A stretch of 64,000 nt of DNA, taken from NCBI GenBank assembly GCA_035995205.1, contig DASYKS010000091.1, forward strand, positions 2,085 through 66,084, read 5' to 3'. Within the stretch, counting starts at the first letter, position 1; every line of letters starts with the position of its first letter. This DNA is from Thermoanaerobaculia bacterium. GTDB lineage: Bacteria; Acidobacteriota; Thermoanaerobaculia; Multivoradales; UBA5704. Shown here piece after piece: positions 34,516 to 47,387 of this stretch. A model generated the notes under the pieces. It was not told where the DNA came from and did not search any database. It was given only the letters and a program-made list of their open reading frames with translations. A program made the translations under genes and the position numbers.

Positions 34516-34812
34516 TCAAGCCGTTCGAAGACGCCTACGAGTCCAGGAAGAGCTCCGCCTGCAATCCAACACGGAGCGGACGCGGACAGTGTCCGCCTCG
34601 ACCGTGTAGTAGATCGCGTAGGGGAAGCGCTTCGAAAGGGCGCGGTGCTTGTCGTAAACGACACGATGAATCCCCGCATACACGAGGAGGGAATCGATGT
34701 CCGAGTACAGGGAGTCGAGAAAGTAGTTGCCTAAGCCGGCAGCTTGCCGCTCGTAGAAGTGGTAGCCATCCACGAGATCCTCCGTAGCGGCCGAGAGGAT
34801 CTCGATCTTCAT
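34516..34812 (-). CDS. ParE/RelE family type II toxin
   Basis: MKIEILSAATEDLVDGYHFYERQAAGLG...AIYYTVEADTVRVRSVLDCRR. Start overlaps the upstream antitoxin stop (ATGA). Lower GC. Confidence 0.65.
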   Translation of the reverse strand: MKIEILSAATEDLVDGYHFYERQAAGLGNYFLDSLYSDIDSLLVYAGIHRVVYDKHRALSKRFPYAIYYTVEADTVRVRSVLDCRRSSSWTRRRLRTA

Positions 34813-35030
34813 GAAACGCGTTTGCGGATGTCCACTTTGGCCTGATCCCAATCCATGAAGCTGGCCTCGCCGGTTTCGAGCTGCCGCTCTCGCTCGATCA
34901 GAACCTCTTCATGCCAGGCGGGAGACTCTAGTTCGGCGTTGCGGCTCAAGTCTTCCCACAGCGCCTCCATGGCTTGAAGCTTCTCTTCGATGGACATCTC
35001 GCTCAGGGGGAGGACTTGAGCTAGGTTCAT
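34809..35030 (-). CDS. Putative addiction-module antitoxin (TIGR02574-like)
   Basis: MSIEEKLQAMEALWEDLSRNAELESPAWHEEVLIERERQLETGEASFMDWDQAKVDIRKR is the hallmark of this antidote family. Confidence 0.6.
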   Translation of the reverse strand: MNLAQVLPLSEMSIEEKLQAMEALWEDLSRNAELESPAWHEEVLIERERQLETGEASFMDWDQAKVDIRKRVS

Positions 35031-35063
35031 GACGGGATCGTAACCCACGGAGCCCAAGGTTGC

Positions 35064-37745
35064 TCAGCTCTGCCGAAGCGCCACCACCGGATCGAGATCC
35101 GCGGCCCGGCTGGCGGGGAGGTAGGCGGCGAGGAGTGCCGCGGCGGCCAGGAGGGCGGCGGAGAGCGCGAAGGTGGCCGGGTCGGTCGGGCTGACTTCGA
35201 AAAGGAGGGACGCCATCGAGCGGGTGAGCGCGTAGGAGGCCGCGGCGCCGAGGGCGATGCCGAGCAGGGTCGCGAGCGTGTTGTGGCCGACGACGAGGGC
35301 GAGAACGGAGCCGCGCCGCGCGCCGAGGGCCATGCGGATACCGATCTCCCTTCGACGCTGGACGACGAAGTAGTTGGTGGCGCCCCAGATCCCGACCCAC
35401 GCGAGGGTGAGCGCGAGGAGCGCGAAGGAGCCGAGAAGGAGGGTGCGGAACTGCGGCTGGGCGACCGCGTCTGCTACCAGGTCGGACATCGGTCGCGGGC
35501 GGATCACCGGCAGGGTCGGATCGACCCGGGCGAGCTCGCGACGCGCGAGGTCGGCGACCAGGGCGGGCTCGGCCGAGCTGCGGATCACCACCGAGATTCC
35601 GCGCGCCCAGTTGGAGGTAAATCCGGGGTCGAGTTGGACGTACGGAAGCAGAACCTCGGGCTTCGACGCCGCGTCGAGACCACGGTGGCGAACGTCGGCG
35701 ACGATGCCCACGACCGTTTGCCAGGGACCCTCCGGCCCGTCCACTGAGATCCGCCGGCCGATGGCGTCTCGGCCCGGCCAGTAGCGGCGCGCGAACGCCT
35801 GGTTGACCAGCGCCACGGGGAGCGCGCCGTCTCGGTCTCGGCCGTCGAAGCTCCGACCACGCAGGACCGGAATGCCCATCGCCTTGAGGTAGCCCGAACT
35901 GATGCCGTGCAGGCTGGCGGTGGGATCGCCGGCTTCGGCCGGCGGCGTGTACCCTTCGATCGAGAAGCTGTTTTCCAGATCCTGGCCGGAGAGCGGCAGA
36001 TGGGTCGTTGCGCCTACGCTCTCGAACAACGGCTGCGCCGCGAGCTGGTCGAGCAGCCGGCGCTCGAAGCTCCGCATCGCGATTGCGTCGGGAAATCGCG
36101 ACGAGGGCATCACCACGTCGAACGTCGAAGCGCCGTTTGGGTCGAATCCCAGCTCGACCCCGCGCAGGTTGGCGAAGCTCCGCACGGCAAGCCCCGCGCC
36201 GGTCAAGAGCACGAGCGAAACGGCCACCTGGGCGACGAGCGTGGCCGCGCGCAGCCGCTGATGACGCCGGCCCGTGGTAACCGAACGTCCTCGAAGCTCG
36301 GCAAGGCCTCCCGCGTCGTCCGCGGCGCGGCCGGCCGTGTCGAGCGCCGGAGCGAGACCGAAAACCAGTGCGGCGGTAAAGGAAACCAAGGTGGCGAACA
36401 GCAGCACGCGGCCGTCCAGGGCCGCCTGGTCGAGGCGCTGCAAGTCGCTCGGTCCGAACGCCTGGACCGCGCGCAGCACGCCTTGGGCGAAGACCAGCCC
36501 GGCGAGCGCGCCGAGCCCGTACAGCACCAGGGTTTCCGTCAGCAGCTGGCGGACCAGGCGGAGCTTGCCGCCGCCGAGCGCGGCGCGGGTCGCCATCTCG
36601 TTACGCCGCGCTCCGGCGCGCGCGAGTTGCAGGCTGGTGACGTTGGCGCAGGCGACAAGCAGCACGAAGCCCACCGCGCCGAGCAGGAGGTAGAGCGCGG
36701 GACGCGCGGCCCCGACGTATTCTTCGGTGAGCGAGGCCATGACGATCCCGGTATGACCGTCATTTTCCGGAAACCGCTCGGCAAGCCCACGGCCGACGGC
36801 CGAAAGGTCGGCCTGCGCCTGCTCGGGTGATACCCCCGGCTTCAACCGCCCGACCACCTGGAGGTAGCGCGACGAGCGATTGATCGGCAAACCTTCGCTC
36901 ACCCCGCGGAACGGGAATGGGGTCCACAGCTCGTAGTGCTTGTCCGGATAGGAGAAACCGGGCGGCAGCACCCCGATCACCACGAACGGTTTGTCATTGG
37001 CGATGACGGTCCGGCCGACGATCTTGGGATCGCTTCCGAAGCGGCGTTGCCAGAGCGAGTGGCCGAGCAACATCACCTGGTCGCGGCCGGTCTCGTTCTC
37101 CTCCCGGCGGAAGCGGCGGCCGAGGATCGGCTCGACGCCGAGCACGTCGAACAGCTCGGCCGAGACGACCTGGCCGAAAACCCGTTCCGGCTCCCCGCCG
37201 CCATCGCCCGCGCCCCCGGCGAGATTGAATCCGGTGCCGACGTGCGCCGCGAGCGCCGAAAACGTTCGGTTCTGGCTCTGCCAATCGAGAAAATCGAGCG
37301 GCGCCGCGCGCGTGCGCCCGACCTCCGCGGCCTCGTGATCCTGATAGAGGGCAAAGAGGCGATCGGGCTGCGGATAGGGAAGAGGGCGAAGAAGGACCGC
37401 CTCGACCACGCTCGATACGGCCGTGTTCGCCCCGATCCCGAGCGCCAAGGTGAGCATCGTGGCGAGCGCAAACCCGGGGTTCCGCCGCAAGGTTCGCAGG
37501 CCGAGCCGGGCGTCCTCGACCAGGGTCTCTAGGAACACGAAGGTGTCGGCGTCGCGCGTCCGCTCGCGCAAAACGAGCGCGTTACCCAACGCCCGCTCAG
37601 CCCGCCGGCTCGCCGCGTCGGAAGCGAGCCCTTCGGCCTCGTGCTCGCGGGCTCGCATCTCGACGTGGAACGCCAGCTCCTCATCGATCTCGCGCGCCAG
37701 GCGCCCGGGACGAATCAAATTGCCGAGCCGACCGAGAAAGGACAT
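35064..37745 (-). CDS. ADOP family ABC transporter permease (MacB-like, duplicated FtsX)
   Basis: 893 aa from MSFLGRLGNLIRPGRLAREIDEELAFHVEMRAREH. Two FtsX modules. C-terminus LDPVVALRQS. The track ORF has a 20-codon upstream extension. Confidence 0.85.
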   Translation of the reverse strand: MSFLGRLGNLIRPGRLAREIDEELAFHVEMRAREHEAEGLASDAASRRAERALGNALVLRERTRDADTFVFLETLVEDARLGLRTLRRNPGFALATMLTLALGIGANTAVSSVVEAVLLRPLPYPQPDRLFALYQDHEAAEVGRTRAAPLDFLDWQSQNRTFSALAAHVGTGFNLAGGAGDGGGEPERVFGQVVSAELFDVLGVEPILGRRFRREENETGRDQVMLLGHSLWQRRFGSDPKIVGRTVIANDKPFVVIGVLPPGFSYPDKHYELWTPFPFRGVSEGLPINRSSRYLQVVGRLKPGVSPEQAQADLSAVGRGLAERFPENDGHTGIVMASLTEEYVGAARPALYLLLGAVGFVLLVACANVTSLQLARAGARRNEMATRAALGGGKLRLVRQLLTETLVLYGLGALAGLVFAQGVLRAVQAFGPSDLQRLDQAALDGRVLLFATLVSFTAALVFGLAPALDTAGRAADDAGGLAELRGRSVTTGRRHQRLRAATLVAQVAVSLVLLTGAGLAVRSFANLRGVELGFDPNGASTFDVVMPSSRFPDAIAMRSFERRLLDQLAAQPLFESVGATTHLPLSGQDLENSFSIEGYTPPAEAGDPTASLHGISSGYLKAMGIPVLRGRSFDGRDRDGALPVALVNQAFARRYWPGRDAIGRRISVDGPEGPWQTVVGIVADVRHRGLDAASKPEVLLPYVQLDPGFTSNWARGISVVIRSSAEPALVADLARRELARVDPTLPVIRPRPMSDLVADAVAQPQFRTLLLGSFALLALTLAWVGIWGATNYFVVQRRREIGIRMALGARRGSVLALVVGHNTLATLLGIALGAAASYALTRSMASLLFEVSPTDPATFALSAALLAAAALLAAYLPASRAADLDPVVALRQS

Positions 37746-37756
37746 GGCGTCTCCCC

Positions 37757-38086
37757 TCAAGCGAATTCGAGCACCGCGGCCACACCGCGCGCGAGCCGTT
37801 GCCATTTCTCTTCTTCGACCGCGAGCTGCCTCTTGCCCTTAGCGGTCAAGCGGTAGACGCGCGCCCGGCGGCCCTTCTCCGACTCGCTCCATTCCCCTTT
37901 GAGCAGGCCCGCCTGCTCCAGCCGATGGAGCGCCGGATAGAGCGAGCCCTCTTCCACCCGCAGCAGATCCCCCGACGCCGCTTGAATATGCACCGCGATC
38001 CCGAAGCCATGAAGCGGCCCGCGTTCCAAAGTGCGCAGCACCAGTAGGTCGAGAGTTCCCTGGAGCACGTTGTCGCGCTTGCTCAT
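37757..38086 (-). CDS. PadR family transcriptional regulator
   Basis: LQGTLDLLVLRTLERGPLHGFGIAVHIQAASGDLLRVEEGSLYPALHRLEQAGLL. Classic PadR directly upstream of an ADOP permease. Confidence 0.85.
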   Translation of the reverse strand: MSKRDNVLQGTLDLLVLRTLERGPLHGFGIAVHIQAASGDLLRVEEGSLYPALHRLEQAGLLKGEWSESEKGRRARVYRLTAKGKRQLAVEEEKWQRLARGVAAVLEFA

Positions 38087-38274: not shown

Positions 38275-39261
38275 ATGAGATGGACGCCTTGGTTCCTCGT
38301 TATGGTTCTGGTCTCTTCTTCTGTATTCGCGCAAGTCGAAGTCGATCAGTGGAAAAATCTCGGTCGCGGCACGACGCTCTGGCCACAGGTCGGTCCAACC
38401 TGCTCTGGCGGGACGGCGCTAGATGGAAGCCTCGAAAACGGATATCGGGCTCTTTCTACAGCCGATGCGCGATTCGTTCAGCGCCTGACTCCGCCCACCT
38501 ATCCGTCCGGTCTAACCCGTGTCTGTGCATGTTGGATCGGCCGCGATCCTATAGATATGCCATTCAACTTTTTGATTTATGATGACGATGGACAAGGGGG
38601 AATCCCAGGCAAGTTGCTCGGCTCTGTTCCCTCAGTCGTCTCAATCCCAACGATATTCGGTCAGGAGTTCGTCGGCGAGAGTTGCGCTTTTCTCGACCTG
38701 CGTACCGAGTCAGGAGGTTTATACATCGGCGTCCAGTGGGACGCGGAAGCGTACATTGGTTTCTTCACCTGCAGCGACGAGAGCCTGACTACCCCACCGG
38801 CGAAAATGTATAGATCTAGCAATGGAGGACTGAACTGGCTTCCTGTGGCTGGTACCGTTTTCCCGAAAGCCAGAGCCCTCAGTTTTCGTGGTGAATTCGT
38901 CACTCTCGTCGATCCGGCCCCCCCTGCGGGACCGTGGTTGACCACCTCCGCGCTTCCGGGCTATCAGTTCAAATCGCAGATCGCCGGAAACCGCGCGGCG
39001 ACCCTGGTCGCGGATTGCGTGCCGGAGACGCTATGCCTCGCGGGGGCGATTCCCACCCGTGCGGAAGCCTTCGTGCGGATCATCGGCCCCCGCGGAAACG
39101 GTTTCCTGTGGCCGGAAGTGATTCGCTTCACCGTGGCCCAAGTCGAGCTCTGGATTCAGAAGACGCCGGCAGGCCCGATCAACTACTACAAACTGGCTGG
39201 AGTTTCCCAGGACAGCGACGTCCTGAACGGCCTGGTCGATCGCGAAGGTTTCTTGCCTTAG
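38275..39261 (+). CDS. Secreted hypothetical protein
   Basis: Signal peptide MRWTPWFLVMVLVSSSVFA. Lower GC. No recognised family. Its last 81 bp are duplicated at 40136-40216. Confidence 0.6.
   Translation: MRWTPWFLVMVLVSSSVFAQVEVDQWKNLGRGTTLWPQVGPTCSGGTALDGSLENGYRALSTADARFVQRLTPPTYPSGLTRVCACWIGRDPIDMPFNFLIYDDDGQGGIPGKLLGSVPSVVSIPTIFGQEFVGESCAFLDLRTESGGLYIGVQWDAEAYIGFFTCSDESLTTPPAKMYRSSNGGLNWLPVAGTVFPKARALSFRGEFVTLVDPAPPAGPWLTTSALPGYQFKSQIAGNRAATLVADCVPETLCLAGAIPTRAEAFVRIIGPRGNGFLWPEVIRFTVAQVELWIQKTPAGPINYYKLAGVSQDSDVLNGLVDREGFLP
39181..39261 (+). repeat. Direct repeat copy 1 (3' end of the secreted-protein gene)
   Basis: 81 bp, ~90% identical to 40136-40216. Both copies encode NYYKL(A/P)GVSQDSDVLNGLVDREGFLP*. 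Confidence 0.8.
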
Positions 39262-39477
39262 GCGCGGGACGACTCGCCCGGCGAGCCACCTGCGCCAGGT
39301 GACTCGCCCCTCAATCTCTATACCTACTGGTCGTAAGTATTCAGAAAGGCGAGCGCGTCGGCGTCGTCTAGACACTCGGCGCGGGCGTCGGGGGGGTGAC
39401 CGGCCAAGTCAAGCACGGCGCGCGCCGCATCCGAGCCGCCGGCACGGCTCTGGGGCCGGCGACAGGCGGTAGCATCC

Positions 39478-39813
39478 TCAGTGAAGGCAGGCGTCAACCA
39501 AGTCGAGGACGTCCTGAAGAAACTCGGCCGGCGCCCGCTCGACGAAACGGGCGCGGCGGCTGAGGTGATCGACGGACTTGACCTGCTCGACCATGACAAA
39601 ACCGGTCAGCGATGAAGAGTCCGGGAGGGGGAGGTGAAAGGGAAATCCGCGGTTTGTGTTGGTGATCGGGCAGACGATCGCCAGCCCCGTGTGCTGGTTG
39701 AAGAGATCTTTGCTGACGACCAGAGCAGGTCGGCGCCCTTTCTGTTCATGACCCGTTTGGGGGTCGAAGGAGAGGGTTACGAAATCGCCTTGCCTCGGCG
39801 TGTAGCGGGGCAC
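39478..39813 (-). CDS. MazF/PemK family type II toxin (endoribonuclease)
   Basis: MPRYTPRQGDFVTLSFDPQTGHEQKGRRPALVVSKDLFNQHTGLAIVCPITN is the PemK/MazF fold signature. Confidence 0.8.
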   Translation of the reverse strand: MPRYTPRQGDFVTLSFDPQTGHEQKGRRPALVVSKDLFNQHTGLAIVCPITNTNRGFPFHLPLPDSSSLTGFVMVEQVKSVDHLSRRARFVERAPAEFLQDVLDLVDACLH

Positions 39814-40056
39814 TTACCACTCCTCCCGCCCTACCGGAGGGCCGAATGAGATCTCCTGTGGCTGATAGTCCTTCGGGATTCGCGCGACCAAATCGGCGAG
39901 GTCGAACTTGGGTCTCGCAATCTTTCGGACGACGATCTCCCCCGCGCTCACGGTGATCTCCACGTCGTCTCCTACCGCGAGCGTGGCCAGCTGGAGCACC
40001 TGCTTTGAGATCCGCAACCCCTGGCTGTTTCCCCACTTCTGGACCTTCGCGACCAT
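39814..40056 (-). CDS. MazE/PemI-like antitoxin (AbrB/SpoVT swapped-hairpin domain)
   Basis: MVAKVQKWGNSQGLRISKQVLQLATLAVGDDVEITVSAGEIVVRKI. Directly abuts the toxin start. Confidence 0.75.
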   Translation of the reverse strand: MVAKVQKWGNSQGLRISKQVLQLATLAVGDDVEITVSAGEIVVRKIARPKFDLADLVARIPKDYQPQEISFGPPVGREEW

Positions 40057-40088
40057 TGGCGATTTCTCCCATAATCTTGTATAGCCGA

Positions 40089-40117
40089 TGTATACACGTC
40101 CGAGCCGACGGTGTCAA
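40089..40117 (-). promoter_or_regulatory. Sigma-70-like promoter for the mazEF cassette (TTGACA-N17-TATACA), with a TGTATA direct repeat at the -10
   Basis: Read on the minus strand: TTGACAccgtcggctcggacgtgTATACA. It lies ~30 nt upstream of the mazE ATG. Confidence 0.45.
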
Positions 40118-40135
40118 CGTTGTACTGCCGCTTCC

Positions 40136-40216
40136 AACTATTACAAGCTGCCCGGAGTCTCCCAGGACAGCGACGTCCTCAACGGCCTGGTCGATCGCGA
40201 AGGTTTCTTGCCGTAA
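40136..40216 (+). repeat. Direct repeat copy 2 (orphan duplicate of the secreted-protein gene 3' end), followed by a hairpin at 40227-40256
   Basis: 81 bp, ~90% identical to 39181-39261 and ending in TAA. Downstream hairpin GGCGAGTCG-N12-CGACTCGCC. The motif gacgactcgcc also follows copy 1. Confidence 0.8.
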
Positions 40217-40407
40217 AAGTTCGCGCGGCGAGTCGCTTGAGCTGAGACGACTCGCCACGTCGATCCGCCTCCGGGGGCGTTTGAGACCAGGTCCCCAGCC
40301 TTTCGTCCCTGCGCGTGCTCTCATTTTCGCCGAGCGTGGAATCATGCCCTCGTCGCACCATCCTCGACATTTCGTCAGTTTCGAGAGAGCACTAGCGGAG
40401 GTTCGTC

Positions 40408-43158
40408 ATGCCCCGGCATTTATCGCGGCGTTGGATTGCATACGTGGGTCTTCTCGCTCTTCTTGGGGCATCGACCGCCGTGGCGCAGCCGCATTTGGTG
40501 ACCGATCTCAATCAGGGGCGGGTGCCGGCCAATTTGCAACCCTTGCCGTCCGCGGGGATCGAGCAGGACGGAGTGCTCTATTTTCCTGGGCAAGATCCGC
40601 AGCACGGCTACGAGCTCTGGCGGACTGACGGCACGCCGGAAGGCACGTACCGCCTGGTCGATCTCTGCCCGGGAAGCTGTTGGGGCGGGGGCAACGGTCT
40701 AGGTTTCTTCCACGGTTTTCTCTACTTTCTGGGCAACGACCGGGAGCACGGTGTCGAGATCTGGCGCACGGACGGCACGGTAGGCGGGGAGGAATTGCTC
40801 GGGGATCTCTGCCCGGGCGTTTGCGGGACGACGCCGGGCGGGTGGGTCGAGCGGGACGGCGCTCTCTGGTTTCTCACCCAAGAGTTCGGCAAGACCCCGA
40901 TCCTTTGGACCAGCGACGGCACCCCGGCGGGGACGAGGCCGGTCGCGAACCTCTGCACCGATCTCGGCATCTGCGGCTTCGTCGATTATTCATACGCGTT
41001 CTTGGCCGGCCCGGACCCCTCCGGGCAGGGCTTCGCCCTCTGGACGTCGACCGACACCTCCGCCCTGTACCGCACCGACGGCACCGCGGCGGGTACCGTC
41101 CTCCTGCATCGCTTCACGAACGCGTTTCTCGCCTCCAAGGCGGGCGCGGACAAGCGGCTCGAAAGCTTGAAAACCTCCGTCGGACCGATCGCGCGGACGG
41201 CGGCCGAGGCCGCCGAGTCGCTCTTCTTTCTCGACGGGTTCGATCTCTGGACGAGCGACGGAACGCCCGCCGGCACCCACTTCGTGCGCAACGTCGAAGG
41301 GCTGATCGGCCTCAGCCGCTACATCCAATCGGTGCGTGTGATCGACGGGATCTGGTACGCGATCTTCGACTACGGCGATTGGCTGCGTTCGGACGGGACC
41401 GCGGAGGGGACGTTCCTCCTGGCGAAGGTGGATTCCCAATTTCGTCCGACGCTCGCGCGGATCGGCAACGCGGTATTCGCGATCACCGTGCACGGCATCT
41501 GGCGCGCGGGCGCCACCCCGGAGACCACCGTGCGCTTCGACGGGCCGGTCGGCGACGTCCTGACCGTCGTCGAGCGGCCGGGGCGGCTGTACGTCATGGG
41601 CTGGGACCGGGCCGGTTTCGTCTGGAGCACCGACGGCACCCCGGCCGGCACGCGGCGCCACCATCTGGACGGCCCGCCGAATCCGGATCAGTACGAGATG
41701 GGCGGATTCGGCGACGGCGTCTTGATCTCGGTCGGTTACCGCGAGCTTTGGCGGATCGATCTGTCCGGCGCGGAGCGGCTGCATGATTTCCAGCCGGCCA
41801 ACGGCGGTTCCGGCCCGGTCGACCAGATCGTCCTCGACGATCGCCTGCTGTTCATTTCGCTCCCCGACGCGCAAAGGGCGAAACTGTTCTCCTCCGACGG
41901 CACGACGGCCGGCACGGCGGCGATCAGTCCCTATGTGGACGGGAACTTCGGTTTCGAATTCCAGCCGGATGTCTATCGGCTCACGCGGGCCGGTCACCGC
42001 GCGTTCTTCACCACGTTCGGTCGGGTCTGGACGAGCGACGGCACGGCCGCGGGAACCCGGTCCTTCCGCCCCTCGTACAGCTCTTCGACCCACGTGATGA
42101 CCGCGCCGATCGGCGTCGTGGGCGACCGCTTCGTGTTCGGCGCGAACTTCAAGCTCTACCCGTTGCGCTGCGAACCGGGGGACACCGAGCCCTGGGTGAG
42201 CGACGGCACGCAACGCGGCACGAAACAGATCCTGGACTTGAATCCGTTCTTCCGACCGACCAACAGCTCCCAGTGCGAGACCGTGGCGGTCTCGTCGTCG
42301 CCGGGTCCCGGCGTCTCGCTCGGCTCGTTCGCCCTGTTTGCCGCCAACGATCTTGTGCACGGCCGCGAGCTGTTCGCGACCGACGGCACGAAAGAGGGCA
42401 CCCGCCTGGTCGCGGATCTGAACCCGAAGTTGATGCCGAATGCGATCACCGATCCGCCCTTGCCGGCGCTGATCGGCGTCGGCTCCGATCCGAGCGACCT
42501 GGTCCGGGCTGGGAGCCGCGCCTTCTTCGTCGCCGACGACGGGACGACCGGCCACGAGCTCTGGGTGACGAACGGCACGCGCCGCGGCACCCGGCGGGTG
42601 GTAGACCTGGTGCCTGGACCGGCAAGCTCCACGCCGCGCGACCTCGTGGCGGTCGGCGACGCGGTCTACTTCTTCGCCGCGCACGGCACGGGCGAAGGGC
42701 TTTTTCGCAGCGACGGCACGCGCGCCGGTACGGTCCTCGTGAGCGACCTGGCCGGCGCTTCTCAGGCTCGCGACCTTACCGTCGCCCGCGGCAACCTGTT
42801 CTTCGTCGCGTTCCTCCCGGAATCGGGCACGGAGCTGTGGACCTCCCGGGGCACGGCTGCCACCACCCGCGAGGTGGCCGACCTGCGCCCAGGGCCGCTC
42901 GGCTCGCAGCCGCAAAATCTGAAGGCGATCGGCGATCGGGTGGTGTTTGCGGCCGAGGACGGCACCTCCGGCCTCGAACCGTGGAGCAGCGACGGCACCG
43001 CGCAAGGCACGCTCCGCTGGGGGGATCTCGCCCCGGGCTCTGCCGCGAGCAGCCCGGGACCGTTCAGCGTCGCCCGGGGGCAGATCCTGTTCGGCGCCGA
43101 CGACGGCGAGCACGGCCGCGAGCTGTGGGCGATCCCGGTCGCCGACCTGCCGAAATGA
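40408..43158 (+). CDS. Secreted ELWxxDGT-repeat protein, paralog 1 (type B N-terminus)
   Basis: 916 aa. Signal peptide ...STAVAQPHLVTDLNQ. Three Cys pairs (DLCPGSCWGGG, DLCPGVCG, NLCTDLGICGF). About 19 units with ELWxTDGTxxGT core. C-terminus GADDGEHGRELWAIPVADLPK. GGAGG RBS. Confidence 0.85.
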   Translation: MPRHLSRRWIAYVGLLALLGASTAVAQPHLVTDLNQGRVPANLQPLPSAGIEQDGVLYFPGQDPQHGYELWRTDGTPEGTYRLVDLCPGSCWGGGNGLGFFHGFLYFLGNDREHGVEIWRTDGTVGGEELLGDLCPGVCGTTPGGWVERDGALWFLTQEFGKTPILWTSDGTPAGTRPVANLCTDLGICGFVDYSYAFLAGPDPSGQGFALWTSTDTSALYRTDGTAAGTVLLHRFTNAFLASKAGADKRLESLKTSVGPIARTAAEAAESLFFLDGFDLWTSDGTPAGTHFVRNVEGLIGLSRYIQSVRVIDGIWYAIFDYGDWLRSDGTAEGTFLLAKVDSQFRPTLARIGNAVFAITVHGIWRAGATPETTVRFDGPVGDVLTVVERPGRLYVMGWDRAGFVWSTDGTPAGTRRHHLDGPPNPDQYEMGGFGDGVLISVGYRELWRIDLSGAERLHDFQPANGGSGPVDQIVLDDRLLFISLPDAQRAKLFSSDGTTAGTAAISPYVDGNFGFEFQPDVYRLTRAGHRAFFTTFGRVWTSDGTAAGTRSFRPSYSSSTHVMTAPIGVVGDRFVFGANFKLYPLRCEPGDTEPWVSDGTQRGTKQILDLNPFFRPTNSSQCETVAVSSSPGPGVSLGSFALFAANDLVHGRELFATDGTKEGTRLVADLNPKLMPNAITDPPLPALIGVGSDPSDLVRAGSRAFFVADDGTTGHELWVTNGTRRGTRRVVDLVPGPASSTPRDLVAVGDAVYFFAAHGTGEGLFRSDGTRAGTVLVSDLAGASQARDLTVARGNLFFVAFLPESGTELWTSRGTAATTREVADLRPGPLGSQPQNLKAIGDRVVFAAEDGTSGLEPWSSDGTAQGTLRWGDLAPGSAASSPGPFSVARGQILFGADDGEHGRELWAIPVADLPK

Positions 43159-43183
43159 GATCGAGAACCCAACGGAGGGCGTG

Positions 43184-44608
43184 ATGCGAATTCAATCCTG
43201 GCGCGCGGCTTGGAGCTTCGTCTTTCTCGCTTTCGCGGGAACTTTGGCCGTCGAGGCCCAGCCGCACCTGGTCGCCGATCTCAATCAGGAAAGGGTGAAT
43301 ACCGCCTTGTCCTCCGCTTTGTCTGGAGGAGTCGAGCACGACGGCGTGGTCTATTTTGCGGGTCACGATCCGCAGCACGGCTCCGAGCTCTGGCGGACGG
43401 ACGGTACCTCGGAGGGCACCTATCGCCTGACCGATCTCTGTCCGGGGAGCAGCGGGGGCTTGGGCGAGCCCCTGGGGTTTTTTGCCGGGTACCTCTATTT
43501 CCGCGGCGACGACTGCGAGCACGGATTCGAGATCTGGCGCACGGACGGGACGGTGGGCGGAGAGGAAATGCTCGCGGAGCTCTGCACGGGAGACTGCGTG
43601 ATCGAACCCAGGAGCTGGCTCGAATGGCGAGGGGCGCTCTGGTTCCTGCTTCGGGATGCCGCCGGAACGGCGCAGGTTCTGTGGACCAGTGACGGAACCG
43701 CGGAGAACACGAGGCCTGCCGCCGACCTCTGCGCCGATCTCGGAATCTGCGACTTTGTCCCGGACTCCATTTTCCTGGTCGGGCCGAACGCGACGGGGGA
43801 GGGTCTGTTCCTCTGGGTCTATTCGACGGACAACCCCATGGGCGCGCTTTTCCGTACCGACGGCACCGCTTCCTCATCTCCCGGCCCCGGTGTCGTGGTC
43901 GGCCGGATCGCCCTGTTCCCCGCCAACGATCTGATTCATGGCCGCGAGCTGTTCGCGACCGACGGCACGAAAGAAGGCACCCGCCTCGTCGCCGACCTCA
44001 ACCGGAACCTCGAACCCAATCCGAAGTTTTATCCTCACCATCCGGAGTTCGGACCGGAGCAGGCCGGCGTCGGTTCGGATCCGAGCGATCTGGTGCGCGC
44101 GGGAAGCAATGTCTTCTTCGTTGCCGACGACGGCAGGACCGGGCGCGAGCTGTGGGTGACGAACGGCACGCGCCGGGGCACGGGTCTCGTGAGCGACCTC
44201 TCGGGCGGCTCCCAAGCGCGGGAGCTGACCCTCGTCCGCGGCAAACTGTTCTTCGCGGCGTTCCTCCGGGAGACGGGCGCCGAGCTGTGGACCTCGAAAG
44301 GCACGGCGGAGACCACCCATAGGGTGGCCGACCTGCACCCCGGACCGTTCGGCTCGCAGCCGCAGAACCTCAAGGCGGTGGGCGATCGGGTGGTGTTCGC
44401 GGCCGAGGACGGCATCTCCGGGCTCGAACCCTGGACCAGCGACGGCACCGCGGAGGGCACGCTCCGCTGGGGCGACATCGCGCCGGGCAGCGCGTCGAGC
44501 AACCCGGGGCCGTTCAGCCTGGCGAACGGCCAGATCCTGTTCGGCGCGGACGACGGCGAGCACGGGCGCGAGCTGTGGGCGATGCCGGTCGCCGAGCTGC
44601 CGCAATAG
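43184..44608 (+). CDS. Secreted ELWxxDGT-repeat protein, paralog 2 (type A, shortened by two in-frame internal deletions)
   Basis: 474 aa. Same N- and C-termini as paralog 4, but it jumps from ...ALFRTDGTA directly to SSSPGPGVVVGRIALF, and from TRRGT to GLVSDLSGGSQ. Confidence 0.75.
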   Translation: MRIQSWRAAWSFVFLAFAGTLAVEAQPHLVADLNQERVNTALSSALSGGVEHDGVVYFAGHDPQHGSELWRTDGTSEGTYRLTDLCPGSSGGLGEPLGFFAGYLYFRGDDCEHGFEIWRTDGTVGGEEMLAELCTGDCVIEPRSWLEWRGALWFLLRDAAGTAQVLWTSDGTAENTRPAADLCADLGICDFVPDSIFLVGPNATGEGLFLWVYSTDNPMGALFRTDGTASSSPGPGVVVGRIALFPANDLIHGRELFATDGTKEGTRLVADLNRNLEPNPKFYPHHPEFGPEQAGVGSDPSDLVRAGSNVFFVADDGRTGRELWVTNGTRRGTGLVSDLSGGSQARELTLVRGKLFFAAFLRETGAELWTSKGTAETTHRVADLHPGPFGSQPQNLKAVGDRVVFAAEDGISGLEPWTSDGTAEGTLRWGDIAPGSASSNPGPFSLANGQILFGADDGEHGRELWAMPVAELPQ

Positions 44609-44639
44609 AAGCCCTACCGAGAAGACGAACGGAGACGCG

Positions 44640-47387
44640 ATGAGAATCCTGCAATCCTGGCGCGCGGTGTGGTCCGTCGTCCTTCTCGCCTTCGCGGGCG
44701 CCTTGTCCGGGCTGGCCCAGCCCCGCCTCGTCCTCGATCTCAACCGAGAGAGGGGGCGATCCGTTTCGCAGCCTCGGCTGGGCTTCGAGCAGGACGGCGT
44801 CGTCTATTTTTCGGGCAACGACCCGCAGCACGGCTACGAGCTGTGGCGGACCGACGGCACGGTGGGCGGCACCTATCGTCTGACCGATCTCTGCCCGGGA
44901 CGCTGCGACGGCGGAGGACAGGCCCTCGGCTTTTTCCAGGGGTCGCTCTATTTCCTGGGCAACGATTCCGAGCACGGCACCGAGATCTGGCGTACGGACG
45001 GAACCGTCGGCGGGGAGGAGCTGCTCGCCGACGTCTGTCCGGGAATCTGTGATCTCCAGGTGAACGGCTGGGTCGAATGGCACGGGCGGTTTTGGTTCCT
45101 CGCCCAAAGAGTCTTCGGCACAGTCCTCGTCCTCTGGTCGAGCGACGGGACGCAAGAAGGAACCCGACCGGTGGCGAGTCTCTGTCGCGACCTTTCGATC
45201 TGCGAGGGCCAGGACCGCTACACGTATTTGACCGGCTCCGACCCGTCCGGACAGGGCCTCGTCCTGCGGGTGTGCGACGGCTGCGACGCGAGCTCGCTTT
45301 ATCGCACCGACGGCACCGTGGGCGGCACCGTGCTCCTGCATCGCTATGCGGCAAGAGGGTCCGACTTTGGGGAGAAGGCCACCGTTCCGCTCTATTTTCT
45401 CGACGGCTCGGACCTCTGGACCAGCGACGGAACGCCCTCCGGCACTCGCTTCGTCCGCAACCTGGACGCCCTGGTGGATTACGTCCCGTTGCGCTCTTCC
45501 GCCCAGGTGATCGACGGCACCCTGTACCTCGCGTTCGACGGCGGCGAATGGCTGCGCTCCGACGGCACGGCGGAAGGCACCGTCGTGCTGGCCGATGTCG
45601 GCCCCGGCACCGACCCGAAAATCGAGCCGATCGGCGACGCCGTCTTCGCCGTCACGTCGGAAGGAGTCTGGCGCACGGGAGGCACCCCGGAGACCACCGC
45701 CCGGCTCGATTTTCCGTTCGGCTTGATCCAGACCGTGGTCGCGCGGCCGGGCCGCCTGTTCGGCTTGAGCTACGAGGGGCAAGGGGCCTTCGTCTGGACC
45801 ACCGACGGCACGGCGGCCGGCACGCGACGGGTCCATCTTCCCCGCGGACCCAAACCGGATTTGTACGGTTTGGTGGGGTTTCTCGACGGGGTGTTGTTCT
45901 CCCGCGGCGCGCGCGAGCTGTGGCAACTGGAACCGATCGCCTCCGGCCAGGGCGGCACGGGATTCGTCGCCGAGCGGCTGCACGAGTTCCAGCCCGAAAA
46001 CGGCGGCTCCGGCCCGAGCGATCAGATCGTCTTCTCCGGCCGGCTGCTGTTCGCGTCGCTGGCCAACCCGGAAAGCCGGTGGCTGTACTCCTCCGACGGT
46101 ACCGCCGCCGGCACGACCGCGCTCCGCGCGATCGAGAACAGCCCGTATCTCGCCCCCGGCGGCGCCTACGAACCGGGGACCCCCTTGATCGCCCGCGCCG
46201 GCGCGCGGGTGTTTTTCAACACCGCGGGAGCGCTCTGGTCGAGCGACGGAACCCGCAAAGGCACCAAGGCCTGGCGCGGTTCTTCCTTCCCGAGCTTCCG
46301 GATGAACGCGCCGATCGGTTTCCTCGGCGGCCAGCTCGTTTTCTCCGCGACGGTCGACTTGGACCTCTACCCGCAGCGCTGCCCCCCCGGAGAGGCCGAG
46401 CCGTGGGTGAGCGACGGCGTTCGAAGGATGGAACGGCTGGTGAATCTCAATCCCTTCTACTACGAACCCGACGGGTTCTGCCTGAACACGGCGTATTCTT
46501 CGTCGCCCGGGCGAGGAGCCCGGATCGGCCCGATCGCGCTCTTCGCCGCGGACGATCTGGTGCACGGGCGCGAGCTGTTCGCGACCGACGGCACGAAGGA
46601 CGGAACCCGGCTGGTCGCCGACATCGACCCGCGGGTGACGCCGGTCGACGGTTCGGAGCTCTTGCCGCGCCCCCTCCACTTCTTCGGGATCGGCTCGGAC
46701 CCGAGCGACCCGGTGCGGGCGGGGAGCCTCGCCTTCTTCGCCGCGGACGACGGGACGACCGGCCGCGAGCTTTGGGTGAGCGACGGTACGAGCCGCGGCA
46801 CCCGTCAGGTGGCGGACCTGATGCCCGGCGCCGGCAGCTCTTCCCCGCGCGACCTCGTGGCGACCGGCGACGCGGTCTACTTCTTCGCCGCCAACCCCCC
46901 CGGGAGCGCCGGCACCGCGGGCGAGGGGCTCTACCGGAGCGACGGCACCCGGAGAGGCACGGTCCGGGTCGGCGACCTCGCGGGCGTTTCCGAAGCGCGG
47001 GGGCTCCAGGTCGCCGACGGCAAGCTTTTCTTCGTCGCCTACCGCCGGGAGACGGGCACCGAGCTGTGGGTCTCGGAAGGCACGGCGGAGACCACCCACG
47101 AGGTGACCGACCTGCGCCCCGGCCCGCGCGGCTCGGCCCCTCAGAACCTGAAAACGGTGGGCGGAACGGTGATTTTCGCCGCGGACGACGGCGTCTCCGG
47201 GCTCGAACCGTGGAGTAGCGACGGCACCGCGGCGGGCACGCTCCGATGGGGCGATATCGCGCCAGGGCGCGACGCGAGCGTCCCCGGTCCGTTCAGCGTC
47301 CTCGGCGGCCAGCTTCTCTTCGGTGCCGACGACGGCGAGCATGGGCGCGAGCTGTGGGCAATTTCGCTTGCTGAGCTGTCGCAATAG
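44640..47387 (+). CDS. Secreted ELWxxDGT-repeat protein, paralog 3 (type B)
   Basis: 915 aa. Signal peptide, Cys-pair region, repeat units. C-terminus GADDGEHGRELWAISLAELSQ. Confidence 0.85.
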   Translation: MRILQSWRAVWSVVLLAFAGALSGLAQPRLVLDLNRERGRSVSQPRLGFEQDGVVYFSGNDPQHGYELWRTDGTVGGTYRLTDLCPGRCDGGGQALGFFQGSLYFLGNDSEHGTEIWRTDGTVGGEELLADVCPGICDLQVNGWVEWHGRFWFLAQRVFGTVLVLWSSDGTQEGTRPVASLCRDLSICEGQDRYTYLTGSDPSGQGLVLRVCDGCDASSLYRTDGTVGGTVLLHRYAARGSDFGEKATVPLYFLDGSDLWTSDGTPSGTRFVRNLDALVDYVPLRSSAQVIDGTLYLAFDGGEWLRSDGTAEGTVVLADVGPGTDPKIEPIGDAVFAVTSEGVWRTGGTPETTARLDFPFGLIQTVVARPGRLFGLSYEGQGAFVWTTDGTAAGTRRVHLPRGPKPDLYGLVGFLDGVLFSRGARELWQLEPIASGQGGTGFVAERLHEFQPENGGSGPSDQIVFSGRLLFASLANPESRWLYSSDGTAAGTTALRAIENSPYLAPGGAYEPGTPLIARAGARVFFNTAGALWSSDGTRKGTKAWRGSSFPSFRMNAPIGFLGGQLVFSATVDLDLYPQRCPPGEAEPWVSDGVRRMERLVNLNPFYYEPDGFCLNTAYSSSPGRGARIGPIALFAADDLVHGRELFATDGTKDGTRLVADIDPRVTPVDGSELLPRPLHFFGIGSDPSDPVRAGSLAFFAADDGTTGRELWVSDGTSRGTRQVADLMPGAGSSSPRDLVATGDAVYFFAANPPGSAGTAGEGLYRSDGTRRGTVRVGDLAGVSEARGLQVADGKLFFVAYRRETGTELWVSEGTAETTHEVTDLRPGPRGSAPQNLKTVGGTVIFAADDGVSGLEPWSSDGTAAGTLRWGDIAPGRDASVPGPFSVLGGQLLFGADDGEHGRELWAISLAELSQ

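Follow-up and report, generated by a model that had tools for sequence, protein, structure and literature searches.

Restriction-modification gene complexes are known to be inserted with a long target duplication (ILTD; Nobusato et al. 2000; Furuta, Abe & Kobayashi 2010, PMC2853133), and this is the closest precedent for the locus described here, a mazEF toxin-antitoxin cassette that lies between two copies of a gene end in a 64 kb stretch of Thermoanaerobaculia DNA (the whole stretch analysed, hereafter the window). In both cases a small module without mobility genes is flanked by repeats on the order of 100 bp that match one copy at the empty site and span a stop codon. However, restriction-modification systems make DNA breaks, whereas the cargo here is a type II mazEF pair, which makes none of its own that could drive the event.

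A second point of comparison is homology-facilitated illegitimate recombination (de Vries & Wackernagel 2002; Prudhomme et al. 2002; defined in PMC3240628). The window resembles its products in that the gene runs in register into copy 1 of the repeat, the joint at 40134/40135 is abrupt, and the resident gene body is lost 5' of copy 2. The copies behave as two alleles, and the gene is a mosaic. The process has been shown only in a few competent bacteria and in E. coli conjugation, whereas here we infer it from the end product.

Displaced 3' ends have also been described at T6SS and Rhs loci, as has C-terminal displacement at effector-immunity loci, including in CDI systems (Jackson et al. 2009; Kirchberger et al. 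2017, PMC5361080). The likeness is that a new 3' part arrives together with a small module, protective or toxic, and shifts the old 3' end downstream, leaving it as an orphan. However, those loci carry distinct toxin domains with cognate immunity, whereas the two ends in the window encode the same conserved peptide (25/26 aa), it is the N-terminal part of the protein that varies, and what has been inserted is a cytoplasmic mazEF pair encoded on the opposite strand; neither a variable C-terminal toxin nor a differing orphan toxin is present. The cassette itself resembles chromosomal mazEF/pemIK of the chpA type, with an AbrB/SpoVT-type MazE upstream of a PemK-fold MazF, a palindrome over the -10 box, and a strain-variable insertion between conserved genes.

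We propose, at roughly even confidence, that the locus is a recombination scar around mazEF, left by an event that was homologous on one side and illegitimate on the other.

A mazEF cassette between two copies of a gene end

The features of the locus, in order along the window, are:

38275-39261, plus strand: secreted-protein gene, 328 aa, signal-peptide-like N-terminus, without a Pfam match; ends in repeat copy 1
39180-39316, plus strand: direct repeat copy 1; last 26 codons and stop of the intact gene, with 55 nt downstream including a hairpin
39280-39308, plus strand: copy-1 hairpin, GC-rich, homologous to the copy-2 hairpin; GGCGAG-N17-CTCGCC with an inner CACCTG/CAGGTG stem
39317-39475, no strand: spacer from copy 1 to the mazF stop, 159 nt, GC ~0.68
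39478-39813, minus strand: mazF/pemK toxin gene, 111 aa, GTG start, full length; PF02452, E = 1.4e-26
39814-40056, minus strand: mazE antitoxin gene, 80 aa, directly abutting mazF; PF04014, E = 1.7e-6
40079-40120, minus strand: cassette promoter region; -35 TTGACA at 40117-40112, 17-nt spacer, -10 TATACA at 40094-40089
40121-40134, no strand: junction between cassette promoter and orphan gene end, 14 nt; a sharp non-homologous joint
40135-40265, plus strand: direct repeat copy 2; orphan 3' end of 26 codons and stop, frame intact, without the gene body, with the native hairpin
40227-40256, plus strand: copy-2 hairpin GGCGAGTCG-N12-CGACTCGCC
40266-40407, plus strand: native intergenic region 5' of the first ELW-repeat gene; the matching spacers of L003 and L210 are homologous to it
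40408-43158, plus strand: first ELW-repeat gene

The first-pass annotation described an 81-bp direct repeat of about 90% identity that encodes the same peptide twice, and both the repeat search and translation confirm it. The longest direct repeat in 37.5-41.5 kb is 39180-39260 / 40135-40215 (81 nt, 91% identical); in codon register (39181-39261 / 40136-40216) 8/81 positions differ and 73/81 are identical, and both copies encode NYYKL(A/P)GVSQDSDVLNGLVDREGFLP*, with 25 of 26 amino acids shared. A 59-nt degenerate core of the repeat has two matches in the 64 kb window, namely the two copies, where shuffles lead one to expect 0. The length of 81 bp has to be revised, as homology continues past the stop codon and the unit is really ~131-137 nt (39180-39316 / 40135-40265), consisting of the gene end and a GC-rich hairpin. 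This non-coding part aligns over 47 columns at 74.5% identity, with 10 further bases unaligned, and its local alignment score of 38 (shuffles, 19.3 +/- 3.8) was reached in 0/500 shuffles. On the other side the homology of the copies ends sharply at 39180/40135, and the sequence 5' of copy 2 is unrelated to that 5' of copy 1.

A motif had been reported to follow both copies, and GACGACTCGCC does have exactly two occurrences in the window (39268 and 40246), but the two sites are not homologous: 40246-40256 forms the right arm of the copy-2 hairpin, the copy-1 counterpart of which is GGTGACTCGCC at 39298-39308, and 39268-39278 is an extra arm within an indel. The copy-2 hairpin, initially taken as probably the original terminator, is indeed the native hairpin of the gene end; however, a T-run is absent from both hairpins and the terminator scan calls neither.

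Between the copies an opposite-strand mazE-mazF pair had been recognised, and Pfam matches to both genes show that it is there and intact. The toxin covers positions 1-105 of 109 in PF02452, and the antitoxin scores 28.3 bits against PF04014, for which the cut-off is 24.7; the pair thus combines a PemK/MazF toxin domain with an AbrB/SpoVT-type MazE immediately upstream in the operon, both genes being intact, as in MazEF/PemIK systems generally. Its proposed own promoter stands as sequence but not as a call. TTGACA-N17-TATACA and the palindrome GTATAGCCGATGTATAC, which at 40079-40095 overlaps the -10 box and is a putative operator, are common to three cassettes (those of the window, L084 and L086), whereas a generic promoter scan misses it, the -10 box ending in A. 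The mazEF pair is an intact chromosomal addiction module that is probably active. The module itself is ordinary, and only its flanks are notable.

The minimal cassette (promoter, mazE and mazF) measures ~645 bp and the whole insert ~0.82 kb (39317-40134), with mazEF as its sole genes. The 159-nt spacer has no homologue in any fetched locus or in the rest of the window, and blastn and tblastx of the 216 nt between the stop codons of copy 1 and mazF (39262-39477) against all loci and the window returned low-complexity GC-rich noise only. No integrase, intI or transposase is found among the called genes within +/-10 kb, and there are no terminal inverted repeats, the only inverted matches near the borders being hairpin arms within the direct repeats. 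Att-like or integron attC features, which had been suggested for the repeats, did not turn up: on reading, the junction sequences do not appear to fit attC core sites, and Rfam at E <= 1 has no match on 38.0-40.6 kb, nor was there one on the downstream element shared by L089 and L001. The insert has the makings neither of an integrase-borne element nor of an integron cassette, an insertion sequence or a transposon.

Related loci and base composition

The comparison with related genomes that the first reading called for brings out empty sites in the Thermoanaerobaculia contigs L003-L006 and L210, which bear out an insertion of mazEF at the 3' end of the secreted-protein gene accompanied by a second gene-end copy. 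In these contigs the gene is followed by a hairpin, a spacer of 228-286 bp and the ELW gene, with one gene end and without a toxin-antitoxin pair. The window is collinear with them from 40135 onward, repeat copy 2 being collinear with the gene end in L003 and L210. Copy 2 and its hairpin are indeed the native gene end and downstream region, and the placement of the insertion directly upstream of the ELW array stands, as the ELW-repeat gene begins at 40408. The downstream part of copy 1 is also homologous to native downstream sequence, that of L089 and L210. Among 84 sequences (83 related loci and the window) the orphan gene end is present in the window only.

Conservation in the secreted-protein family is highest at the C-terminus, and the C-terminal domain is widespread (76 confirmed loci, often several in one genome). 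Derivation of the orphan end from a paralogue with this domain was considered and ruled out, as the orthologous end and spacer of L003 and L210 line up collinearly with copy 2, which differs from the L210 end at only 4/81 positions (hand count).

The same cassette occurs in L084/L085 and L086/L087, in the same DHO_dh...ELW neighbourhood and the same orientation, at 86-88% nucleotide and 92% amino acid identity; in L084 and L086 the proteins are of equal length to those of the window (mazF 92% identical, mazE 92.5%). Homology to these cassettes begins 2 nt outside the mazF stop and stops at or just past the -35 box; their flanks are unrelated to those in the window, and the repeat and the gene-end arm are both absent. 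The identity of DHO_dh is 82-86%, similar to the 86-88% of the cassette, and from this likeness mazEF may be ancestral to the lineages of the window, La6 and L084.

When metagenomes were scanned with the secreted protein as the only query, 51 pattern matches came up, 0 of them confirmed, and no same-species relative was among them. A scan with the cassette operator GTATAGCCGATGTATA returned almost entirely chance matches and no further insertion contexts; mazEF was present among its matches only in L091, L127 and L196, at 55-67% amino acid identity and on contigs of <2 kb. Neither a donor genome nor a near-identical relative emerged from the searches.

The secreted-protein gene is a mosaic: its 5' ~620 nt are 66-67% identical to orthologues and its 3' ~350 nt 88%, and the 5' two-thirds are unusually divergent with low GC3. 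The gene is demonstrably recombinant, with a breakpoint near 38.9 kb. The 38.1-40.4 kb segment had been singled out for its low GC, and it is lower than its surroundings (0.52-0.66 over 37.95-40.65 kb vs ~0.67-0.73 around); what does not hold is its unity as a single island, as it is made up of the secreted-gene family, the mosaic 5' part and mazEF. Genes of the family have a GC of 0.60-0.63 against 0.69 in flanking genes, empty-site genomes included, and mazEF, at 0.61, is the sole added low-GC block. We dropped low GC as evidence of an island because the orthologues in empty-site genomes are equally low; by this comparison it is mostly a trait of the secreted-gene family.

Divergence of the two gene ends

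The ~10% divergence of the copies was at first read as a sign that the insertion is not recent, a reading that the pattern of substitutions does not support. Six of the seven sense-codon differences are synonymous (dN/dS = 0.017/0.42, or 0.04), an excess with P = 0.001 under random placement and P = 0.015 for a relic free of constraint since an in-situ duplication. When changes are polarised with L089, L001, L003 and L007, ~6 are assigned to the functional copy against ~2 for the orphan (P = 0.001, or P = 0.05 with conservative polarisation), the basis being 8 differences in all, three of them ambiguous. The coding part is 90% identical, against 74.5% plus indels in the non-coding part (Fisher P = 0.024). 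Copy 2 differs from the L210 orthologue at 4/81 positions (hand count), from L089 at 7/81 and from copy 1 at 8/81. Because of the synonymous bias, the little-changed orphan and the more diverged non-coding sequence, both copies appear to have been working gene ends until recently. The ~10% divergence, as judged from these substitutions, is one that accumulated in two functional gene ends and predates their juxtaposition.

This is a further difference from ILTD as described, since repeats that are 90% (coding) and 74.5% (non-coding) identical with a synonymous bias point to two pre-diverged alleles. The possibility of a true ILTD, in which a ~130 bp target was duplicated in situ at insertion or repair and the copies then diverged, nevertheless has to be weighed, since the locus shows every feature by which Furuta et al. 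2010 (PMC2853133) recognise such events operationally: an insert <20 kb that holds a complete addiction module without mobility genes, and a repeat >30 bp that is single copy at the empty site. Moreover, the repeat spans the stop codon and the gene stays intact, and copies 1 and 2 share their states at positions 30 and 66 against L089 and L210, which also fits a common origin within the lineage and counts against the recombination scar. However, a free orphan would be expected to carry ~80% of the changes, at all codon positions, and it carries ~2/8; six of the seven sense differences are synonymous, the orphan has kept its frame and its stop, and non-coding sequence is far more diverged than coding. 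We therefore regard a true ILTD as unlikely. A target duplication of the kind made by transposons is not supported: transposase, integrase, attC and terminal inverted repeats are absent, and the substitution pattern speaks against an in-situ duplication.

A tandem duplication of the gene would explain the coding-type divergence equally well as a recombination scar. Hypothetically, the gene was duplicated with its hairpin and spacer, the duplicates diverged under purifying selection, and a later deletion or insertion bearing mazEF left the last 81 nt downstream. Tandem paralogues of the secreted-gene family do exist in L007 (4825-5904, 6001-6990), but they belong to two old paralogue groups and are not recent duplicates, and a tandem copy is found in 0 of the orthologous loci L001, L003-L006, L089 and L210. 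Two events would be required, and copy 2 is nearer to the L210 orthologue than to copy 1, so that we consider this history rather improbable.

Recombination as the proposed origin of the arrangement

The recombination scar that we favour would have arisen as follows. The ancestral order, kept in the relatives, would be secreted-protein gene, hairpin, spacer and ELW gene; in the window the ~645 bp cassette and the 159-nt spacer lie between the functional end (copy 1) and a displaced orphan end with its hairpin (copy 2). The copies would be diverged alleles set side by side in a single recombination event that resembled homology-facilitated illegitimate recombination, with a crossover in homologous sequence on one side and an illegitimate joint (40134/40135) on the other. 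The data are compatible with two directions. In one, DNA of a related lineage comprising the gene 3' part, hairpin, spacer and mazFE would have entered with its anchor in the gene. In the other, the mirror image, DNA comprising a gene end, spacer and ELW would have entered beside a resident mazEF, anchored in the ELW region. If mazEF is ancestral to the lineages of the window, La6 and L084, no import of the toxin-antitoxin pair is needed and only the mirror-image version applies. Sliding identity of the spacer and the ELW 5' region against L003 and L086 gave no signal as to the side of import; in coding sequence the window, L003 and L086 lie at much the same distance from one another, and the spacer of L086 is just divergent. 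A point against the recombination scar is that, where measured, homology-facilitated illegitimate recombination occurs rarely.

In type II toxin-antitoxin pairs the toxin MazF outlives the antitoxin MazE, so that loss of the pair is counter-selected. By analogy, loss of mazEF from the window lineage would have been counter-selected after the event, and such selection would explain why the cassette persists, why its borders are tightly trimmed and why its neighbours are reshuffled in every relative.

A more mobile history is conceivable, in which the minimal mazEF cassette spreads with a host gene end and hairpin as homology arm. A ~0.95 kb circle of gene-end arm, spacer and mazEF would be excised from a donor via the repeats and re-enter by a single Campbell-type crossover in stretches of 20-32 identical nt. 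This would give the order repeat, insert, repeat, with pre-diverged donor/recipient hybrid repeats, and both repeat boundaries are sharp. Restriction-modification modules with long flanking repeats have been hypothesised to go through a life cycle of this kind (PMC2853133). However, two other genomes carry the cassette without repeats and without a gene-end arm, the orphan gene end is at no other locus among the 84 sequences, a RecA crossover is inefficient on 81-137 nt at ~90% identity, and a circular form was not observed. We consider both the circle and the spread of such a unit improbable. If the unit were real, it would be a type II toxin-antitoxin counterpart of the restriction-modification 'virus-like life cycle', and addiction modules generally could move without a recombinase of their own.

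The window is a metagenome contig (JGI 3300035667) and its two gene ends resemble two alleles, so that an assembly chimera of two strains, with and without mazEF after the gene, might be suspected. However, a graph chimera would switch inside the shared repeat instead of setting the copies in series across a unique 14-nt joint. The identical protein is also encoded on another contig, at least 200 kb long, and this speaks against a one-off artefact; that contig was collapsed with the window locus since most neighbour genes encode the same proteins. An assembly chimera is thus very improbable. Site-specific integration, with the repeats as attL/attR, integron attC or a transposon target duplication, is least credible of all: integrative elements do typically rebuild the target 3' end and leave direct repeats, and each repeat holds an imperfect palindrome, but integrase, intI and transposase are absent within +/-10 kb, the insert consists of mazEF plus a 159-nt spacer, the junction sequences as read do not match attC core sites, no RNA family or structure matches, 130 nt is far outside transposase target-duplication lengths, and cassette borders elsewhere differ from the repeat borders. 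The locus is neither a self-transposing element nor a new kind of mobile element, and none of its features suggests a new type of system.

As a natural example with a filled site, empty sites and alternative contexts, in which a bare toxin-antitoxin operon is flanked by a long repeat and the gene is left intact, the recombination scar proposed here would mean that a long flanking repeat can be two alleles joined by recombination, not a duplication made by insertion. The divergence of flanking repeats would then be unusable for dating such insertions, and displacement scars of this kind may account for some 'long target duplications' described at addiction modules.

Different toxin-antitoxin pairs (mazEF, phd/PIN and an Unstab_antitox pair) occur around one secreted-protein gene in uncultured Thermoanaerobaculia, which makes the site a hotspot.

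Two gene ends in series

No direct repeat in 37.5-41.5 kb is longer than the 81-nt one described in the first-pass annotation (39180-39260 and 40135-40215, 91% identity). Chance is ruled out, as the 59-nt repeat core has only two matches in the 64 kb window and none expected in shuffles. In codon register (39181-39261 and 40136-40216) 8 of 81 nucleotides differ, and both copies translate to the shared peptide NYYKL(A/P)GVSQDSDVLNGLVDREGFLP*. Copy 1 is the genuine end of the gene for a 328-aa secreted-type protein (38275-39261). Copy 2 lacks a gene body, and its upstream sequence is unrelated to that of copy 1. Gapped alignment carries the repeat beyond its earlier-reported length, to 39316 and 40265, adding 47 non-coding columns (74.5% identity) and 10 unaligned bases, with an alignment score above all 500 shuffles. 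The features of the locus, with the mazEF pair lying between the two copies, are:

39280-39308, GC-rich hairpin, copy 1
39478-39813, minus strand, mazF (PF02452, 1.4e-26), intact
39814-40056, minus strand, mazE (PF04014), intact, abutting mazF
40227-40256, GC-rich hairpin, copy 2

The motif GACGACTCGCC, reported to follow both copies, does occur exactly twice, but by alignment the occurrence at 39268 is not the homologue of that at 40246. In copy 1, 39268-39278 is an additional hairpin right arm lying 5' of the left arm, within a 7-8-nt indel immediately past the stop codon, and it yields a second small palindrome.

The copies differ by six synonymous changes and one non-synonymous change (dS 0.42, dN 0.017, Nei-Gojobori), and one stop codon is TAG, the other TAA. 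At least six of seven changes being synonymous has P = 0.001 under random placement, and P = 0.015 for an orphan left unconstrained ever since duplication in situ (its expected share being ~81% of changes). Polarisation against related loci (L089, L001, L003 and two L007 paralogues) assigns ~6 changes to copy 1, the functional one, and ~2 to copy 2, the orphan, a split with P = 0.001 against the in-situ expectation, or 0.05 with every ambiguous site assigned to copy 2. Copy 2 has 4/81 mismatches to the orthologue in the related locus L210 (manual count), 7/81 to L089 and 8/81 to copy 1. Within the repeat, identity is 90% in coding sequence, versus 74.5% plus indels in non-coding sequence (Fisher P = 0.024), and the reading frame and stop codon of the orphan are intact. 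This substitution pattern and the intact frame and stop therefore indicate that, before a recent event set the copies in series, each of them functioned as a gene end. We conclude that the copies resemble two orthologous or allelic gene ends rather than a gene end and its decaying duplicate. The earlier argument that ~10% divergence makes the insertion old is not supported, because the divergence predates the event. A 42-aa ORF (40088-40216), whose ATG lies within the mazE operator/-10 region, stays in frame across the orphan end. It has probably arisen by chance; were it translated, the case for a neutral relic would be undermined.

Empty sites and related cassettes

The proposed comparison with related genomes was run, and both L003-L006 and L210 have a single gene end and no toxin-antitoxin pair. 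L003-L006 share the gene order of the window (NAD-binding, PAS-HisKA, YmdB, RNase Y, ZapA, DHO_dh, secreted gene, ELW-repeat gene), with flanking genes at 82-88% nucleotide identity, and their one gene end is followed by a 286 bp spacer and the ELW gene. A second empty site, independent of the first, is found in L210, where 873-1583 aligns uninterrupted with window 40135-40809 through gene end, hairpin, 228-bp spacer and ELW start; copy 2 and its hairpin are therefore the native gene end, still in its native position. Queried with the 27-aa C-terminus, an orphan gene end is found in the window only (1 of 84 sequences, 83 related loci and the window).

The pair itself is an ordinary MazEF/PemIK module. 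Its previously noted promoter, TTGACA-N17-TATACA, is found in the sequence at 40117-40089, and a generic promoter scan makes no call. The closest mazF homologues (92% amino acid identity) come from two further relatives, where they share the window's neighbourhood and its orientation with respect to DHO_dh and ELW. In L084/L085 mazEF immediately follows DHO_dh and there is no secreted gene; in L086/L087 (MAG GCA_038250865.1) it is immediately upstream of the ELW genes, and then comes a second pair:

L086 5465-6087, phd/PIN pair adjoining mazEF

DNA homology to the window is confined to 39476-40120 in L084 and 39476-40097 in L086 (86-88%), spanning 2 nt past the mazF stop to the -35 box. The sequence outside the cassette differs in all three genomes, and the L084 and L086 cassettes have neither repeat nor gene-end relic. 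Across these genomes the mazEF unit is conserved, its borders closely trimmed, and the sequences next to it turn over. The same gene-ELW spacer houses a phd/PIN_3 pair in L007 (7349-8043), with no repeats. Both mazEF and phd/PIN are thus housed recurrently in this gap, which looks like a toxin-antitoxin hotspot.

A recombination model for the locus

Among known systems, the setting comes closest to insertion with long target duplication, which is on record for restriction-modification units (PMC2853133). In a 2013 review (PMC3874152) these units are the only ones for which such insertion is described, and a literature search of limited reach found no toxin-antitoxin example. Insertion beside the gene end, as first suggested, agrees with the empty sites; the accompanying target duplication does not agree with the substitution pattern. 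The locus belongs to an already known kind of rearrangement, and its apparent duplication is best read as two alleles.

The simplest single event would be a recombination that was homologous on one side and illegitimate on the other, with the illegitimate joint at 40134/40135. These two elements define homology-facilitated illegitimate recombination (PMC3240628), a process to which displaced 3' ends at T6SS and Rhs loci have been attributed (PMC5361080). Either of two directions would fit. Incoming DNA of a related lineage (gene 3' part, hairpin, spacer, mazFE) may have been anchored in the gene, or a resident gene and mazFE may have received gene end, spacer and ELW, anchored on the ELW side.

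A true long-target-duplication insertion would leave everything that the operational criteria of PMC2853133 call for, all of which is seen here, but it is at odds with the substitution pattern. Tandem duplication of the gene, with the downstream copy later replaced, accounts for that pattern, but it requires two events, and no orthologous locus examined has a tandem copy. Campbell-type integration of a circular excision product is compatible with what is seen, but the repeat-free cassettes in L084 and L086 speak against it. For site-specific or transposase-mediated insertion every defining component is absent: no integrase or transposase is among the genes called within +/-10 kb, the only border inverted matches are hairpin arms inside the direct repeats, and an Rfam search has no match at the locus. 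The 159-nt spacer (39317-39475) has no homologue in the compared loci or the window. An assembly chimera would not line up the two alleles one after the other across a unique joint, and the identical protein is also encoded on a second long contig (collapsed with the window's place, as most neighbouring genes encode the same proteins). The window sequence corresponds to JGI metagenome 3300035667, contig Ga0372941_0000013, which is 297 kb long.

Mosaicism, composition and nearby rearrangements

Homologues of the secreted protein all come from Thermoanaerobaculia or other Acidobacteriota MAGs. Its C-terminal ~115 aa (window 38930-39261; loci L008-L083) form a widespread domain without a Pfam model (…GPRxNGFLWP…ELWxQ…NYYxL…GLxDRxGFxP*). 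It recurs in numerous paralogues per genome throughout Thermoanaerobaculia, always at the protein's very end and sometimes fused to trypsin-like peptidases. Over its 5' ~620 nt the gene shows 66-67% identity to four orthologues, which reach 78-94% among themselves, and GC3 there is 0.56 versus 0.71-0.75 in the orthologues; over the 3' ~350 nt its identity to L089 and L210 is 88%. The breakpoint, near 38,900-38,950, coincides with a GC step. This mosaic suggests that the N-terminal domain was replaced by a distant allele, or evolved very fast. Because of the identity and GC3 pattern, which is evidence independent of the repeat, the secreted gene appears to recombine with foreign alleles.

The reported low-GC segment is real but composite, combining a gene-family trait, the divergent 5' part and mazEF. 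The secreted-gene family is low in GC in every relative, empty-site genomes included (0.60-0.63, against 0.69 in the neighbouring DHO_dh and ELW genes), and the divergent 5' part (0.55) is below the family. GC is 0.61 in mazEF, likewise in L084 and L086, and 0.70 in 39262-39477.

Relative to L003/L004, L001 and L089, the window has ~3.9 kb extra between DHO_dh and the secreted gene (34516-38086), with a small pair (a 98-aa ORF with no Pfam match and a 62-aa Unstab_antitox protein, PF09720), a 913-aa permease-like gene and a PadR regulator; L003 keeps 157 nt (5621-5777) homologous to the Unstab_antitox gene. In L089 (2356-2874) the secreted-gene hairpin region leads directly into an ELW gene 3'-end relic (encoding DGEHGRELWAIPLAE), a junction that is a deletion, possibly via a shared CGGCGAG motif. 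L089 and L001 (7000-7460) continue into a common ~350-nt non-coding element, which has no Rfam match and ends the L001 contig. From 40408 to 46000 and beyond, the window has at least four consecutive ELW-repeat genes (892-915 aa, and one of 474 aa that looks like an internally deleted copy). There is one such gene in L003 and two in L086; the array has expanded in the window lineage.
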